Shown here: positions 6,061-60,490 of the stretch, piece by piece | How the letters are laid out: the number at the start of each line of letters is the position of its first letter | How positions within the stretch are numbered: the first letter of the stretch is position 1 | Source of the DNA: Actinomycetota bacterium | GTDB taxonomy: Bacteria; Actinomycetota; Actinomycetes; Mycobacteriales; Micromonosporaceae | Assembly: GCA_046728155.1 (NCBI GenBank) | Contig: JBKPDY010000124.1 | Coordinates: 236 to 64,235 of the forward strand | Length of the DNA: 64,000 nucleotides | Direction: 5' to 3' | The notes under the pieces: generated by a model | What the model was told of the DNA's origin: nothing | Database searches by the model: none | What the model saw: the letters and a program-made list of their open reading frames with translations, nothing else | Position numbers and translations under genes: made by a program

Positions 6061-6080
6061 TCGACGCAGACGCTCGATGA

Positions 6081-6130
6081 AAGCAGGGGCACCCTACTTG
6101 CTTGTGGATGTCAATAGGGTGCCCCTGCTT
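6081..6130. terminator. 16-bp perfect-stem hairpin between convergent genes (bidirectional terminator candidate)
   Basis: AAGCAGGGGCACCCTA, then an 18-nt loop, then TAGGGTGCCCCTGCTT. It lies between the MMPL stop (6060) and the hydrolase stop (6147). The U-tract is weak. Confidence 0.5.
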
Positions 6131-6146
6131 GCATGCGTCCGTCGCG

Positions 6147-16097: not shown

Positions 16098-16190
16098 ATA
16101 CCGTATCAACATCCAGGCACCCGCTCCACCTGTTTCGGGGGATGGACGGCGGTCGGGTAGGGTCCGCAGGTCACCGTCTCCCCGGGAAGC

Positions 16191-16275
16191 TGATGACAAC
16201 GAGCCGGCATCGAGTGAGCATCGCGGGAGCGCCAGGCCCGCGGAGCGGAGCGAGCGCGGAGGCGAGCGGGCATGA
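16191..16275 (+). repeat. intercistronic repeat family, shortened copy C (termini only, no internal module)
   Basis: TGATGA-CAACGAGCCGGCATCGAGTGAGCATCGCGGGAGCGCCAGGCCCGCGGAGCGGAGCGAGCGCGGAGGCGAG-CGGGCATGA. It shares both termini with the copies at 32049-32237 and 60320-60490. Confidence 0.65.
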
Positions 16276-19252
16276 CGCGCGTATCGCCGTCCCTCGGGAC
16301 GAGCAGGTCCAACCCGCCACCGGCCGGCCGGCCGGCTGGCGCCGGCGGCTCCCCGACGCCATCACCGGCGCCGTTGTCCTGGCGATGATCGGTTTCGTCC
16401 TGGGCGGCATCGGCATCCAGCTCGCCGGCGTCCGTGTCCTGGCCGACACCAGCAGTCTGACCGTCTCCAGTGTCTATCGCGACGGCGGAATGCCGCAGAC
16501 GTCCTCGGGAACGCTTGGACTCAACGACACGATCGACGCCGCCACCCCGAACGAGGTGCTCTTCGGCACGGAGCTTCGCAATGGGGTCTTCGCCGACTGG
16601 AACCCGTACGCGTTGGGCGGCGCTCCGCTCGCCGCGACGCCGAACTTCGGCCTACTCTCGCCGCTGGCCGCACCCTTCTGGCTGTTGCCCGGTTGGCTGG
16701 CTCCGGCCTACGTCAAGCTGCTCGAATGCATCGTCGCCATCGGCGGCACGTACCTGTTCCTGCGGCGGTTGCGACTACGCCCGGCGGCCGCGTGTCTCGG
16801 CGGGACGATCTTCGCCTCAAGCGCCTTCATAGTGGCGTGGACCGGTTGGCCGCAGACGCGGACCGCCGTCGTGATCCCGGCCCTGTTCTGGTCATTGGAC
16901 CGGCTGGCTGAACGCCTGCGCTGGCGCGAGGCCGCGCTGGTTTCGCTCGCCGTGATGTGCCTGTTGCTCGGCGGCTTCCCGTCGGTCACCGGGTACGCCC
17001 TGCTGACCGGGGCGGCGTACCTGGCGGTACGTCTGCTCGCCCAGCGCCCACTGCGGTGGCCGGTGGTCGTGGCCCGGTCGGCCGCCGCCGCCGGTGCTGT
17101 CCTGGCCGGCATAGCGGCGACGGCCTGGCAGCTCGTCCCGTTCGCCCAGTACCTGGGCACCGCGCTGATCAGAGGGCGGGACCAGGTCTCCGGCCAGCAC
17201 ATCCCGGTCGAGGCTCTGCTGACCACGATCGCCCCGTACGCGCTGGGTACGGCGAGCGCCCGGAACGCGCCGACCTGGTTCGCGCCGGGAATCCTGGTAG
17301 AGGGCGAGTCGTACATCGGCGCGGCGGCGTTGGTGCTCGGGGTGGCGGCGGTGGCGCTCGCCGGACGGGCCCGGGCGTTACTGCCCCGTGGAGTCTGGTG
17401 GTTCCTCGTCGCCGCAACCCTCGGCTGGGGCGTGGTCATCTATCTCGGGGGGGCGCCGCTCGGGCTGCTGCAGCGGACCGGGTATCTCTTCTCGGACAAC
17501 TTCATCGGCCGGGCCCGGAGCATCCTCGGGCTGCTGGTCGCCGCGCTCGCCGCCGTCGGCTTCGAACTGCTCCTGCGCCGGCGGGAGGAGCACACCGTCA
17601 ACCCGCTGACCCGAGCCTCACGGGCGTACGGACTGGGCGTATGGCTCGCCGTCGCGAGCGGTGGCGCCGTCGTGTACCTCGTCGGGCGTCGGCTGGCCAC
17701 CGCCCGCGGAACCACGACCGTCTCGACGGCCGGGGCGGTCGGCCCCGACCAGGCCGTAAGTGATCTCACCGCGCTGAACCGACAACTGGCCATCGGTCTG
17801 CTCCTCGCCGCGCTGACCGGAGCCGCGGTTGCCTGGCTCTGGTTCGGCCGACAAGACGGGCTCGGCCGGCGCCGGCGGGCGCTCGTCACCGCCGCCGTGG
17901 TCCTCATCCCCGCCCTGGTCGCCGGCCAAGCGCTCGCGTGGGTACTGAGCTACTACCCACACTCGAAACGGGCGAACTTCTACCCCACCAACGCGGTACA
18001 CGACTACCTCGCCGCACACCTGGGGCACGAACGGTTCTACGGGACCGCCGGAGCGATCTACGGCAGCCTCGAGACCATCCACGGCCTGCGCCAGTTCCAC
18101 GGGCACGGATTCATGGAGCAGGAGTACGGCGAGCTTGCCGACGCTCTGCCCGGTCGCCAGTTCCCGCCCCCACCGAGACCGGCCACCATCATCGTCGGCG
18201 AGTCGGGCGACGCGGCCGAGGCCGTTGCACACAGCCCGATCCTGGATCGCGCCTCGGTTACCGAATACATCGCGCCGCCGGAGGTGCAGCCCTTCGGCGA
18301 CCTGCACCCCACGCCGACGGACGGGTCGAACGTGACGCTGACGCTCGGCCACCCGGTCACTGTCGAGGTGCCCACAACCGGACCGCTGCGCGGGATCGGG
18401 ATCACGCCGACCGGTTCCGTCGGGCCGACACTGCGGCAACAGATCGACGTCGCGTTGCGCGACGCCGACGGCACGCTCGTGGCCGAGGCGTCGCGAGTGG
18501 ACCGGGAGGTCGCCGCGGGTGTGCCGTTCGTGGTACCGCTCGCCGCGGACACCCTCGGCGGTTCCCTATCTACCGCCGGTCCGCAACTCACCGCGAACAC
18601 GCGACTTACCGCCACGATCACGCTGAAGGGGTTCTCGCTCGTCGGGGCTCCGCCGGCCCCGCCACCACGGCCATGGACGATCGCCGCCCGCCAGGGGACG
18701 CCGGCCATCACCGTGGTGACGCCGAGGCCGAACGACGGCCTGCGGCTGGCGTTCGACGGCCAATCGGTGATCTACCACCGCACGACCGCCCTTCCCCGGG
18801 CCCGGTGGGCGTCGTCCACTGTGGTCGTACCCGACGCACCCGCGCGGCTGAAGGTGCTCGCGTCCGGGAGGCTCACGCCGGACCAGGTCGTGCTGAACTC
18901 CCCGGGCGCACCGGCCGAGGGCCAACCCGCCACAGTGGACTGGATGGACGACGACCTGGACGAGTTGTCATTGCGCGTCGATGCCCACGGCGCCGGGTAC
19001 GTCGTCGTCGCGGACGCCATCCAGCACGGCTGGAAGGCCACAGTGGACGGTCACCCGGCCGCCATCGTGCCGGCCGATCACGCCTTCGCCGCCGTATCGG
19101 TACCGGCCGGCCGGCACACGGTCCGGTTCGTCTACGCCCCGGCCCGCGAATCGCTAGGGGTGGCCATCACCCTGGTCACTGTGCTGGGCCTGCTACTGGC
19201 GGCCGGCATCGAGTGGCGGCGGGAGCGTGCGCGGCGCAGCCGCCGCGGCTGA
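16193..19252 (+). CDS. YfhO-like GT-C family membrane glycosyltransferase (large polytopic protein with an extracytoplasmic C-terminal domain)
   Basis: From ORF 16091..19252. Many TM helices in the first ~600 aa. WNPYALGGAPLAATPNFGLLSP motif after TM1. C-terminal HTVRFVYAPARESLGVAITLVTVLGLLL anchor resembles YfhO-family ends. The start is uncertain: the 16091 ATG lies inside the ARG box, and the 16193 ATG is the left-junction ATG of repeat copy C. Confidence 0.6.
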   Translation: MTTSRHRVSIAGAPGPRSGASAEASGHDARIAVPRDEQVQPATGRPAGWRRRLPDAITGAVVLAMIGFVLGGIGIQLAGVRVLADTSSLTVSSVYRDGGMPQTSSGTLGLNDTIDAATPNEVLFGTELRNGVFADWNPYALGGAPLAATPNFGLLSPLAAPFWLLPGWLAPAYVKLLECIVAIGGTYLFLRRLRLRPAAACLGGTIFASSAFIVAWTGWPQTRTAVVIPALFWSLDRLAERLRWREAALVSLAVMCLLLGGFPSVTGYALLTGAAYLAVRLLAQRPLRWPVVVARSAAAAGAVLAGIAATAWQLVPFAQYLGTALIRGRDQVSGQHIPVEALLTTIAPYALGTASARNAPTWFAPGILVEGESYIGAAALVLGVAAVALAGRARALLPRGVWWFLVAATLGWGVVIYLGGAPLGLLQRTGYLFSDNFIGRARSILGLLVAALAAVGFELLLRRREEHTVNPLTRASRAYGLGVWLAVASGGAVVYLVGRRLATARGTTTVSTAGAVGPDQAVSDLTALNRQLAIGLLLAALTGAAVAWLWFGRQDGLGRRRRALVTAAVVLIPALVAGQALAWVLSYYPHSKRANFYPTNAVHDYLAAHLGHERFYGTAGAIYGSLETIHGLRQFHGHGFMEQEYGELADALPGRQFPPPPRPATIIVGESGDAAEAVAHSPILDRASVTEYIAPPEVQPFGDLHPTPTDGSNVTLTLGHPVTVEVPTTGPLRGIGITPTGSVGPTLRQQIDVALRDADGTLVAEASRVDREVAAGVPFVVPLAADTLGGSLSTAGPQLTANTRLTATITLKGFSLVGAPPAPPPRPWTIAARQGTPAITVVTPRPNDGLRLAFDGQSVIYHRTTALPRARWASSTVVVPDAPARLKVLASGRLTPDQVVLNSPGAPAEGQPATVDWMDDDLDELSLRVDAHGAGYVVVADAIQHGWKATVDGHPAAIVPADHAFAAVSVPAGRHTVRFVYAPARESLGVAITLVTVLGLLLAAGIEWRRERARRSRRG

Positions 19253-31092: not shown

Positions 31093-32055
31093 TCACTCGA
31101 CCGTGACGACGTGGTCGTCGGGAGCGGCCACGGTGCCGTCGTCGGCCAGGTAGTAGGCCTCGATGCGGTACCGGCCGGGGGTGAGGGTTAGCGTCACGGT
31201 CGCCGTTCCGACGTGCGGCGCGCCCTTGTCGAGCCTGACCGGCTGCGGGGTCACCACCGACCCATGCTCGTCCCAGACGATGAGCATGGCGACGGCCCCC
31301 GGAACTGATCCGACGATCTGCACCGGAACCGAGCGGCCGACGGTATCTCCTTGTTCGGGCCAGCTCAGCCAGACCGGCGCCTGAATATCCACGGCCTGCG
31401 CCCGTGCGGTCGGGTCCTTCACGTCGAGACCCCAGAGTTTCGTCCCGCCGTTCACCTCGACCCGTACGTTGACCAGTTCGGTATGTTTCTCCTGCGCGGC
31501 TACGGCCGTCGCGGTGTAAATGAGCTGCTGCAGCGCGATCTCCGCGTCCGCGGGAGCGGTGCCCGGCACGCCGACCAGGTCGACCCTGATCGTGGCGCCG
31601 GCCGTCTGTACCGACTGGACGGTCGCCGCGGCGGGCCAGGCGGTGTGGTAGTCGGGGTCGAGCGGGCGTCCGGCGATCATGTCGGTAAGGGCCGCCTTGA
31701 TCTGGTCATCGAGGCTCCCTCCGCCTGGATACGAGCGGTACTCGCGATAGAGCAGATCGCGACCCGACACTGTTCCGACAACATAGACCGGCAGCCGTGG
31801 ACCGGCCGGAACCGGCGTGGGTCCTATGCCAGGGGGCGGCGGCGCCGACCAGGGCAGCGTCAAGACAACCGCGGTGATCCCGGCGGCCGCGCTCGTGGCC
31901 AGGCCGGCCACCGTGATCGTCCAGAGACGACGGCGACGGGTGGCCGACCCGAGCCGGCGCCGGATCGTGGCCAGTGCGTCCGGGGCGGTCTCCACCCTCG
32001 CGGCCCGGTCTTCGAAGGCCTGCCGCAGCTCGTCCACAAACCTGTCGGTCATCCC
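31093..32055 (-). CDS. single-pass membrane protein with GerMN and Ig-like (Gmad2-type) extracytoplasmic domains; probable partner of the upstream ECF sigma factor
   Basis: From ORF 31093..32142. The ATG at 32055 gives MTDRFVDELRQAFEDRA, then one TM (WTITVAGLATSAAAGITAVVL), then the periplasmic domains. Its SD/ATG is supplied by the right junction of repeat copy A. Confidence 0.7.
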   Translation of the reverse strand, partial: GMTDRFVDELRQAFEDRAARVETAPDALATIRRRLGSATRRRRLWTITVAGLATSAAAGITAVVLTLPWSAPPPPGIGPTPVPAGPRLPVYVVGTVSGRDLLYREYRSYPGGGSLDDQIKAALTDMIAGRPLDPDYHTAWPAAATVQSVQTAGATIRVDLVGVPGTAPADAEIALQQLIYTATAVAAQEKHTELVNVRVEVNGGTKLWGLDVKDPTARAQAVDIQAPVWLSWPEQGDTVGRSVPVQIVGSVPGAVAMLIVWDEHGSVVTPQPVRLDKGAPHVGTATVTLTLTPGRYRIEAYYLADDGTVAAPDDHVVTVE

Positions 32056-32237
32056 TCCTCGCCTCCGCGCTCGCTCCGCTGCTGCCACCCCACGAAGACT
32101 CTCCGCTGCGCTCCACGTCTCCGCGGGGACCCCGGCCCCCACCCCACGAAGACGCTCCGCTTCGCTCCACGTCTCCGCGGGGACCCCGGGAAGGGCCTAC
32201 CGGCCCTGCGATGCTCACTCGCTGTCGGCTCGGTCAT
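32049..32237 (-). repeat. intercistronic repeat family, copy A (two 54-bp modules), containing a 62-codon ORF coupled to both neighbours
   Basis: The ORF's ATG overlaps the sigma TGA, and its TGA overlaps the ATG of the next gene. Termini are shared with the copies at 60320-60490 and 16191-16275. Flanked by the direct repeat GAGGGATGA (22 bp including adjacent identity). Confidence 0.8.
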
Positions 32238-32821
32238 CCCTCCTCGCCTCCCCCGCGGTCGAGGTCACGGCGCAGAGCGGCGATGCCCCGCGCGGTGTGG
32301 CTCTTGACGGCACCCTGGCTGATGCCCATCGCCTCGGCCGTCTGTGCCTCGGAGAGGTCGACGTAGTACCGCAACACCAGCGCTTCCCGCTGGCGGGACG
32401 GCAGTGTCCGGACGGCCGCGAGCATCTCGGCGTGGTGTTCGGCGGCGAGGGCGTGCGCCTCGGCGCTCGCCTCGGTCGGCGTCGGTCCCTGGCGGCGCAG
32501 GAAGCGGTCGACGACGCCGCGGTGGCGAAGTGCCGACCGGGACCGGTTGACCACGCTCTGGCGCAGGTACGCGACCGCCTTGTCCGGGTCGCGGAGCCGG
32601 CCCCAGGAGCGGTGCAGGCTGACGAAGGCGTCTTGCGTGATCTCCTCCGCGAGGCCGTCGTCGTGCAACAGCAATGCGGCGAGCCGGACAAGTGGGCGGT
32701 ACTGCGTGCTGAACAGGCGCGTGACCGCGTCGTCGGCGGTCCAGGCCGTGCTCAGCGCCGGTCCCGCGACGGGTGCCGGGTCGGGACGCGCCGAGGAGTT
32801 GCCGAACGGCGCGTAGGCCAC
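32234..32821 (-). CDS. ECF-type RNA polymerase sigma factor
   Basis: From ORF 32234..32908. Region 2 (LVRLAALLLHDDGLAEEITQDAFV) and region 4 HTH (SEAQTAEAMGISQGAVKSHTARG). The start is uncertain. GTG 32821 behind GGAG was chosen to avoid overlap with ribH. Confidence 0.8.
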   Translation of the reverse strand: MAYAPFGNSSARPDPAPVAGPALSTAWTADDAVTRLFSTQYRPLVRLAALLLHDDGLAEEITQDAFVSLHRSWGRLRDPDKAVAYLRQSVVNRSRSALRHRGVVDRFLRRQGPTPTEASAEAHALAAEHHAEMLAAVRTLPSRQREALVLRYYVDLSEAQTAEAMGISQGAVKSHTARGIAALRRDLDRGGGEEG

Positions 32822-60323: not shown

Positions 60324-60490
60324 CCGCCGAGCCGACAGCGAGTGAGCATCGCAGGGCCGTCAGGCCCGAGCCGGGGCCCCCGCGGAGACGTGGAGCGCAG
60401 CGGAGCAGCTTCGGCGAGCTTGCGAGCCGACCAACGAAGCATTGCGCGGGGTGGCAGCAGCGGAGCGAGCGCGGAGGCGAGCAGTCGTGA
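60320..60490 (+). repeat. intercistronic repeat family, copy B (one divergent internal module), containing a 56-codon ORF coupled to both neighbours
   Basis: The ORF's GTG overlaps the ArsR TGA (GTGA), and its TGA overlaps the ATG of the SRPBCC gene (TGATG). Left and right termini are the same as in copy A. Confidence 0.8.

Follow-up and report, generated by a model that had tools for sequence, protein, structure and literature searches.

Between the gene for an ECF sigma factor and that of its downstream partner, the window (the whole 64,000-nucleotide stretch of DNA analyzed here) carries a repeat, referred to as copy A, whose internal modules fold into a hairpin that is fully paired on only one strand, namely that of the messenger RNA of the flanking genes. 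The initial annotation of this locus read the asymmetry, together with a unit length that preserves the reading frame, as a sign of selection acting on the RNA or on its translation. The question raised by this locus is hence whether the hairpin is maintained as a functional part of the operon transcript or whether its polarity is a property of the repeat itself.

Copy A joins its two neighbors through ATGA junctions at both ends: the stop codon TGA of the ECF sigma gene overlaps the ATG that opens the repeat (32237-32235), and the TGA that closes the repeat (32051-32049) overlaps the start codon ATG of the partner gene, with a Shine-Dalgarno-like GGAGG motif at the right terminus of the repeat. 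Within it lie two modules that are 54-nt direct repeats of one another (89% identity), both of which fold on the minus strand as CCCCGCGGAGACG, a 15-nt loop and CGUCUUCGUGGGG (table 1). Reading and folding of the sequence agree with the annotated stem of module 1, in which all 13 positions are paired, 11 of them as Watson-Crick pairs and two (stem positions 5 and 8) as G-U wobbles. The stem of module 2 is the same except for the single terminal mismatch already described for it, which is a G.A at the loop-proximal pair. In the linker between the modules lie the UG that flanks module 1 on its 3' side and the GGGGU that flanks module 2 on its 5' side, both of them conserved in our alignments A1 and A3 (A3 being the cross-genome alignment considered below). 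As each module comprises 54 nt, or 18 codons, the unit preserves the frame as claimed.

The conversion of both wobbles to A.C on the opposite strand likewise holds, and the fold of that strand is far weaker. Using ViennaRNA, the sense strand folds with -28.5 kcal/mol for module 1 (z -3.7; 0 of 200 shuffles as good) and -23.8 kcal/mol for module 2 (z -2.4), as opposed to -16.8 and -14.2 kcal/mol (z -1.5 and -0.8) for the opposite strand of modules 1 and 2, respectively; for the entire 189 nt of copy A the values are -97.4 kcal/mol in sense (z -3.3) and -67.0 kcal/mol in antisense (z -0.4). No U-run of the kind found in intrinsic terminators lies 3' of the stem, where the sequence reads UGGCAGCAGCGG or UGGGGGCC, and no Rfam covariance model matched positions 31500-32800 of the window on either strand at E <= 1. 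A repeat search with exact 8-nt seeds is blind to the module stem because the wobbles interrupt the seeds.

Table 1. Positions of the repeat copies, hairpins and related elements (window coordinates unless a contig is given)
Feature	Position	Strand	Description
Copy A, whole repeat	32049..32237	minus	189 nt, 62-codon mini-ORF
Left-terminus hairpin of copy A	32193..32206	minus	GGGCC-GGUA-GGCCC
Module 1 hairpin	32142..32182	minus	5' arm 32182-32170, CCCCGCGGAGACG; 3' arm 32154-32142, CGTCTTCGTGGGG
Module 1 loop	32169-32155	minus	15 nt, UGGAGCGAAGCGGAG
Linker between the 54-nt modules	32129..32141	minus	UGGGGGCCGGGGU
Module 2 hairpin	32088..32128	minus	arms 32128-32116 and 32100-32088; loop 32115-32101
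Copy B, B-type (87-nt) module	60372..60457	plus	covariance-model match, contig C124:60607-60692
Copy C	16188..16278	plus	short unit without hairpin module
CTAG form	contigs C133:22-125, C176:170-273, C46:12651-12701, C45:3749-3799 and about 20 more		none in the window

Copy A belongs to a large family of repeats in the source genome (4.43 Mb, 68% GC, 176 contigs, 94.5% complete). The basic unit, ATGACCGAGCCGACAGCGAGTGAGCATCGCAGGGCCGnnAGGCCCGAGGAGCGGAGCGAGCGCGGAGGCGAGnnnnnATGA, is a 26-codon mini-ORF with a period of 77 nt that often occurs in tandem; we counted approximately 190 left termini, as opposed to 0 in a control with the reversed genome, and approximately 200 right termini, distributed over approximately 151 loci and amounting to approximately 19 kb. 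An RTGA motif is found at the start of 125 of the 190 units and at the end of 118 of the 125 units with an in-frame stop just past the right terminus. The strand of neighboring genes was called from codon composition (GC3 > GC1 > GC2 required), a caller that is symmetric on random windows (766 vs. 748), and by this measure a repeat locus and the gene downstream of it share a strand in 93 cases and differ in four; for the upstream flank the corresponding counts are 73 and 14. The host repeat thus sits in sense, directly 5' of a start codon.

A 24-mer of the left terminus occurs 182 times in the source genome and zero to two times in genomes of the same genus, and a covariance model of the hairpin (R1), which we built and then searched in other genomes, has 91 matches in the source genome, none in two genomes of the same genus and one to three in four further genomes of the same taxonomic family, which together indicate a burst of the repeat family in the source lineage. 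The exact left-terminus 24-mer is also present in Geodermatophilaceae, Micromonosporaceae, Phytohabitans, Jatrophihabitans and other metagenome-assembled genomes (MAGs). Two further exact occurrences (loci L010 and L045, the former with the full composite and hairpin) fall in MAGs labeled as Methylomirabilota and Planctomycetota; these are probably mis-binned actinobacterial contigs, the alternative being transfer across phyla.

Related genomes offer a view of the copy A site without the element. In the same-genus genome G001, the sigma and partner genes are joined by ATGA overlaps in the absence of the repeat but with a 20-nt local duplication, and this element-free junction is consistent with insertion at the copy A site. 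The duplication, GGAGCGGTCATGAGCA-TGTT-GGAGCGGTCATGAGCA (C6 ~581640-581700, orthologous to 32049-32237), gives rise to a mini-ORF of seven codons (MSMLERS) that has an ATGA overlap at either end, a case which suggests that mini-cistrons may arise de novo via tandem duplication of a stop/start junction. In a second genome of the genus (G002), the sigma/partner junction is rearranged; downstream of the sigma ortholog, the sigma frame continues into a short tandem peptide repeat (...SPSEESPSQESLSRESLSRESPSWESPSWES...) with no ATGA junction at its end.

How the hairpin module relates to its host is evident from the distance between left and right termini, which is 48 nt in 79 units that lack a module, 102 nt (48 + 54) in 23 units, 156 nt in two-module units and 135 nt (48 + 87) in nine units of the B type, with smaller classes at 33, 45 and 60 nt. 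Units with zero, one or two modules all exist in the source genome, and the module is an optional insert of an abundant MIRU-like mini-cistron repeat. Approximately 150 of 173 terminus distances are divisible by three. Among short units the length preserves the frame in 101 of 114, among those with an A module in 30 of 42 and among those of the B type in 15 of 17. That insert lengths are overwhelmingly multiples of three fits a translated mini-ORF, and the 12 of 42 module-bearing units that are out of frame indicate that read-through translation is not strictly needed. The orientation of the module matches that of the host in 68 of 68 cases next to host termini, with none inverted, and among eight distinct composites in other genomes the G-U strand is sense in six and antisense in none. 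Sequence comparison shows the module to be a homolog of a widespread hairpin repeat, with homology extending into the CGGGGY and TG flanks, nested in a single orientation within the 77-nt unit; the open frame is kept through the hairpins, such that translation could pass.

The other two copies in the window illustrate the range of the family. Copy B shares its 5' arm (60378-90) with copy A, retains the outer closing pairs CGCGGGG (60445-51) and adds an internal hairpin of the TTCGGC/GCCGAC type. B-type modules in general retain the 5' arm and outer 3' arm and always add a TTCGGC/GCCGAA helix, which is the invariant inner helix across B-type copies. The initial annotation had assigned to copy B a closing CCCCGCG...CGCGGGG pairing and an inner GCTTCG/CGAAGC helix; both are present, but the latter is not general and occurs in four of 13 B-type copies. 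The small hairpin that it had placed at the left terminus is also real: among 189 units of the source genome, 102 have a perfect GGGCC-N4-GGCCC, and the GCGGG...CCCGC variant is present in copy C. Genome-wide, the 4-nt loop of this terminal hairpin is hypervariable (GCCA 40, GTCA 30, GTTA 11 and many others) around a fixed GGGCC/GGCCC stem. In other genomes the stem reads GGGCG/CGCCC, GGGCCG/CGGCCC or GGCCCG/CGGGCC, and in some the left terminus is a non-pairing GCGAGC-N4-GCGAGCG.

Selection on the stem was assessed at two evolutionary depths. Within the source genome, filtering of loose two-arm regular-expression matches (mostly chance matches or antisense duplicates) left 59 short-loop hairpins, whose stems comprise 615 Watson-Crick, 119 G-U, four A.C and 29 other cells; at stem position 11, the A-U pair is swapped to U-A in 14 copies. 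Among the 40 distinct sequences 95.6% of cells are paired, with double changes at one pair only; the copies, which are approximately 91% identical, are young. Beyond the source genome, the hairpin was found in 24 genomes and seven of 19 families in an even sample of 151 genomes from the same order. The resulting cross-genome alignment A3 (94 matches, 87 distinct hairpins, 24 genomes) was fitted to a model derived from sequences of the G-U strand, such that its counts lean towards pairing and towards G-U over A.C, and copies within one genome are not independent; with this bias, 94.6% of cells are paired, double changes occur at nine of 13 pairs and 106 cells are compensatory, values of which none is reached in any of 500 shuffles. 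When partners are slid by one to three columns, pairing falls to 44-59%, and the compensatory variety is evident in the raw rows of the alignment. Stem positions thus vary with compensation across genomes, albeit in a model-fitted alignment.

Conservation is unevenly distributed along the hairpin. The inner stem (positions 9-11) varies freely among AU, UA, GC and CG. The conserved parts are the loop motif GAGCG-N-AGCG(G)AG, the outer stem and both wobble positions; of the 87 distinct hairpins, 75 have GU at position 5 (eight GC, two AU) and 63 have it at position 8 (nine AU, two GC, 13 other). A related unit is found in a genus of the same family with larger genomes (g6), where an 80-nt, GTGA-bounded mini-cistron has the same loop with a wholly different stem that again contains two G.T, on the strand of the loop motif. 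This unit (repeat GTGAGCGAGCGGAGCGAGCGAACC..., loop AGCGAAGCGGAGCG, stem CTCGCGCCGTCG/CGATGGCGTGAG; L110:1455-1620, L106 and L107) is arranged in tandem and in sense to the downstream gene. The comparisons across genomes show that the hairpin is real and that its stem is evidently kept by selection for pairing on one defined strand of the element.

Whether that strand is defined by transcription can be judged from the stand-alone form of the repeat, which is far more widespread than the composite and carries the same loop and the same two G-U positions. On the G-U strand, the stand-alone unit has TCAT...TCAT ends, which are ATGA...ATGA on the other strand. Across 79 distinct stand-alone units, the upstream gene is opposite to the G-U strand in 52 and on the same strand in one, and the downstream gene is opposite in 49 and on the same strand in four; in 49 of the 79, a mini-ORF runs opposite to the G-U strand and overlaps its neighbors by 4 nt on either side, with periods of 53, 56, 59, 62 and 65 nt (3k-1). 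The mRNA of these units hence has the A.C version of the stem, and, as they are read in three frames (MSTPRNRSLRSRFRGDPA, MNSPHENAPLALHVSAGAPK and VNHPTKSLRS...), conservation does not reside in the peptide. Over the whole of A3, pairing on the G-U strand (94.6% of cells) exceeds that on the other strand (80.7%). In the antisense-oriented stand-alone units, the 11 canonical positions show 26 extra wobbles and eight A.C on the G-U strand (distinct genome/column events), a ratio whose binomial p of approximately 0.003 is no more than indicative, given the relatedness of the copies and a model that favors G-U; a transcription-linked C-to-T bias on the coding strand predicts the opposite sign in these units. 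With the stand-alone form antisense and the composite sense, the polarity belongs to the element rather than to the transcript. It should also be considered that two wobbles share one strand by chance in one case out of two.

A third form of the repeat in the source genome, CTAGTCGGGGTCCTCGCGGAGTCGTGAGCGCAGCGAGCGACTTCGTGGGGTGACTAG, is bounded by CTAG and occurs singly or as a 53-nt tandem, mostly between convergent genes (upstream flank 11 same and five opposite, downstream flank 11 opposite and three same), and its CTAG ends provide a TAG stop to each neighboring gene. The CTAG form looks like the stop/stop-overlap counterpart of the ATGA insertions. The expectation that copies always lie in sense to the flanking operon is largely borne out for the composites and fails for the stand-alone hairpins. 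Likewise, of the initial inference of selection at the RNA or translation level, the selection on the stem and the preservation of frame stand, whereas the step from wobble asymmetry to selection on the sense RNA does not, given that the stand-alone units place their G-U strand opposite to the genes in approximately 50 cases as opposed to one to four.

A role for the hairpin in the sense polycistronic RNA, as a stabilizer, a processing site or a modulator of translational coupling, nevertheless deserves consideration, although we regard it as rather unlikely. In the source genome it is invariably the mRNA strand that pairs in full, the sense fold is much the more stable, the frame is preserved and the changes among copies lean towards preservation of pairing (119 G-U vs. 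four A.C, and the A-U to U-A swap in 14 copies); the g6 80-nt unit also carries its G-U strand in sense. Such a role does not account for the stand-alone units, in which the G-U strand is antisense and wobbles are still preferred over A.C (26:8). Moreover, a uniform sense orientation can descend from a single capture event, the sharing of one strand by two wobbles is an even chance, and the missing U-tract means that the hairpin is not an intrinsic terminator. It is improbable, in our estimation, that the palindrome is instead a duplex or cruciform DNA site for a host protein (like the IHF and gyrase sites in BIMEs) or an end for convergent transcripts, with its location in a mini-cistron being incidental. 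The preference of the CTAG form for convergent genes would fit a site or transcript end of this kind, and a conserved loop and outer stem around a variable inner stem resemble a recognition site; however, duplex recognition leaves the strand-specific tolerance of wobbles unexplained, outside the source genome most copies sit at the junction of overlapping, co-directional genes, a position in which a terminator would do harm, and no T-run follows the stem.

A slightly lower probability still attaches to a functionless relic, a palindrome whose stem is intact merely because the copies are young. The high identity of the source-genome copies and the restriction of their double changes to a single pair are what such a relic would leave, but across genomes the inner stem has been replaced repeatedly with compensation while pairing stays at 94.6%, and in g6 the stem has been wholly replaced with the loop retained; this reading is largely refuted by the cross-genome covariation. 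That the repeat is an REP-type element mobilized by a RAYT or IS200-like Y1 transposase seems very improbable. Like REP elements, the repeat is a short palindrome, GC-rich and imperfect, whose mismatches are strand-specific and whose copies are interspersed and sometimes tandem, yet the conserved GTAG head is absent, the copies do not form inverted BIME-like pairs, and the eight matches in one complete genome (G083), a small sample judged by eye, show no obvious replichore bias. A search for PF01797 returned no match in the source genome and matches in six genomes as a control, and membership in the REP/RAYT group fails for want of a Y1 transposase in the source genome.

We lean, by a modest degree, towards the explanation that copy A contains a hairpin repeat captured in frame within another repeat, that the composite was then multiplied, and that the hairpin serves the propagation of the repeat and travels as a passenger in the mRNA. 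A small hairpin repeat of soil actinobacteria, common to many actinomycetes of the order, would have been captured inside a 77-nt MIRU-like mini-cistron, and the composite would subsequently have multiplied in the source genome. The hairpin would serve the repeat's own propagation, with the folded single strand recognized in a strand-specific manner by a putative copying or mobilizing activity. In the operon transcript, a ribosome that ends at the upstream gene could restart on the mini-ORF, melt the hairpins and reach the ATGA of the downstream gene, which the GGAGG at the right terminus would help; effects at the level of the mRNA, such as protection from exonucleases, would be secondary. 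As to a mobilizing enzyme, we found no Y1 (IS200/RAYT) transposase in the 94.5%-complete source genome, and a search there for a longer element flanked by inverted hairpin arms found none. A counterpoint to the passenger role is that both composites in sense, the 77-nt unit and the g6 80-nt unit, have their fully pairing strand as the mRNA, as an RNA function predicts. On a bolder version, to which we assign a low likelihood, a strand-specific, non-Y1 mobilization would place elements into 4-nt overlaps (ATGA at stop/start and CTAG at stop/stop junctions) and duplicate the overlap, such that the neighbors keep their codons; the hairpin would be the recognition structure, and the MIRU-like repeats of actinomycetes would all belong to one superfamily, at whose core lies a folded single strand, either DNA or cDNA, in which two G.T are obligatory.

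MIRU classes have unit periods of 77 and 53 nt, and the loop motif of our hairpin presumably resembles that of the mycobacterial MIRU. To our knowledge, the spread of MIRU-type repeats, which are used daily in strain typing, has been unexplained since 1997. In two summaries of the original description (Supply et al. 1997, summarized in PMC12548453 and PMC3184786), MIRUs are small ORFs between operon genes with 4-nt stop/start overlaps, and they are further characterized by tetranucleotide direct repeats and internal GC-rich inverted repeats (PMC3184786); the stem-loop family Myt-11 contains MIRUs (PMC2267715). The repeats described here share with MIRUs a unit of 40-100 bp (77 nt in the host repeat, 53-65 nt in stand-alone units), single or tandem occurrence between co-directional operon genes, a mini-ORF with 4-nt overlaps at both ends (ATGA twice in copy A, and in 49 of the 79 stand-alone units), internal GC-rich inverted repeats and, in the host repeat, the orientation of the adjacent genes (93:4 and 73:14). 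This likeness is one of architecture, drawn from descriptions of mycobacterial MIRUs rather than from their sequences. Unlike MIRUs, the repeats are hosted by Micromonosporaceae, Geodermatophilaceae and other non-mycobacterial families, and, unlike MIRUs as described, they have a separable hairpin core with conserved G.T positions that occurs in three settings (ATGA antisense, CTAG convergent and nested sense). Mini-cistron repeats with hairpins are hence already known from mycobacteria; the non-mycobacterial family and its separable core are apparently new, since our literature search found no description of this repeat family outside mycobacteria, nor any account of a hairpin core that is separable, has conserved G.T positions and occurs in three junction contexts.

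Other families of small palindromic repeats are less similar. REP/BIME elements, which are thought to be recognized as single-stranded hairpins and can stabilize upstream mRNA, are likewise short, imperfect, abundant and extragenic palindromes with strand-specific mismatches; in contrast to them, the present repeats lack a Y1 transposase and a GTAG head, carry start and stop codons, would be translated through and have a fixed orientation relative to genes. Correia/NEMIS elements of Neisseria and the ERIC/IRU elements of enterobacteria are MITEs of 100-150 bp with long terminal inverted repeats and a TA duplication that are processed by RNase III. They too are small, non-autonomous repeats that are co-transcribed with their neighbors and form hairpins in the mRNA, but a stem of 13 bp, as described here, falls short of a typical RNase III site, and the repeats have ATGA or CTAG junctions. 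The Rickettsia palindromic elements (RPE) and the Cod-2 family keep their frames open, with different frames in different copies (PMC2267715). Our repeats resemble them in being palindromic with open frames of which several are used; RPEs, however, are inserted within coding genes and contribute to the protein product, whereas the hairpin repeats are mini-cistrons of their own between genes.

The family described here offers hundreds of diverse, non-mycobacterial copies with a covarying hairpin core, fixed wobbles and three junction types, and it makes testable which strand and which molecule is recognized and whether such repeats affect coupling and the fate of the mRNA in operons (here, that of an ECF sigma factor and its partner). 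It also holds a caution for reasoning from sequence alone, in that a repeat copy may owe its G-U asymmetry to inherited polarity, in which case the asymmetry is no evidence for RNA function. Unrelated to the repeat family, a 20-nt inverted repeat at 6077-6134 (ATGAAAGCAGGGGCACCCTA / TAGGGTGCCCCTGCTTGCAT) is the strongest plain hairpin of the window, with 95% complementarity between its arms and a spacer of 18 nt.
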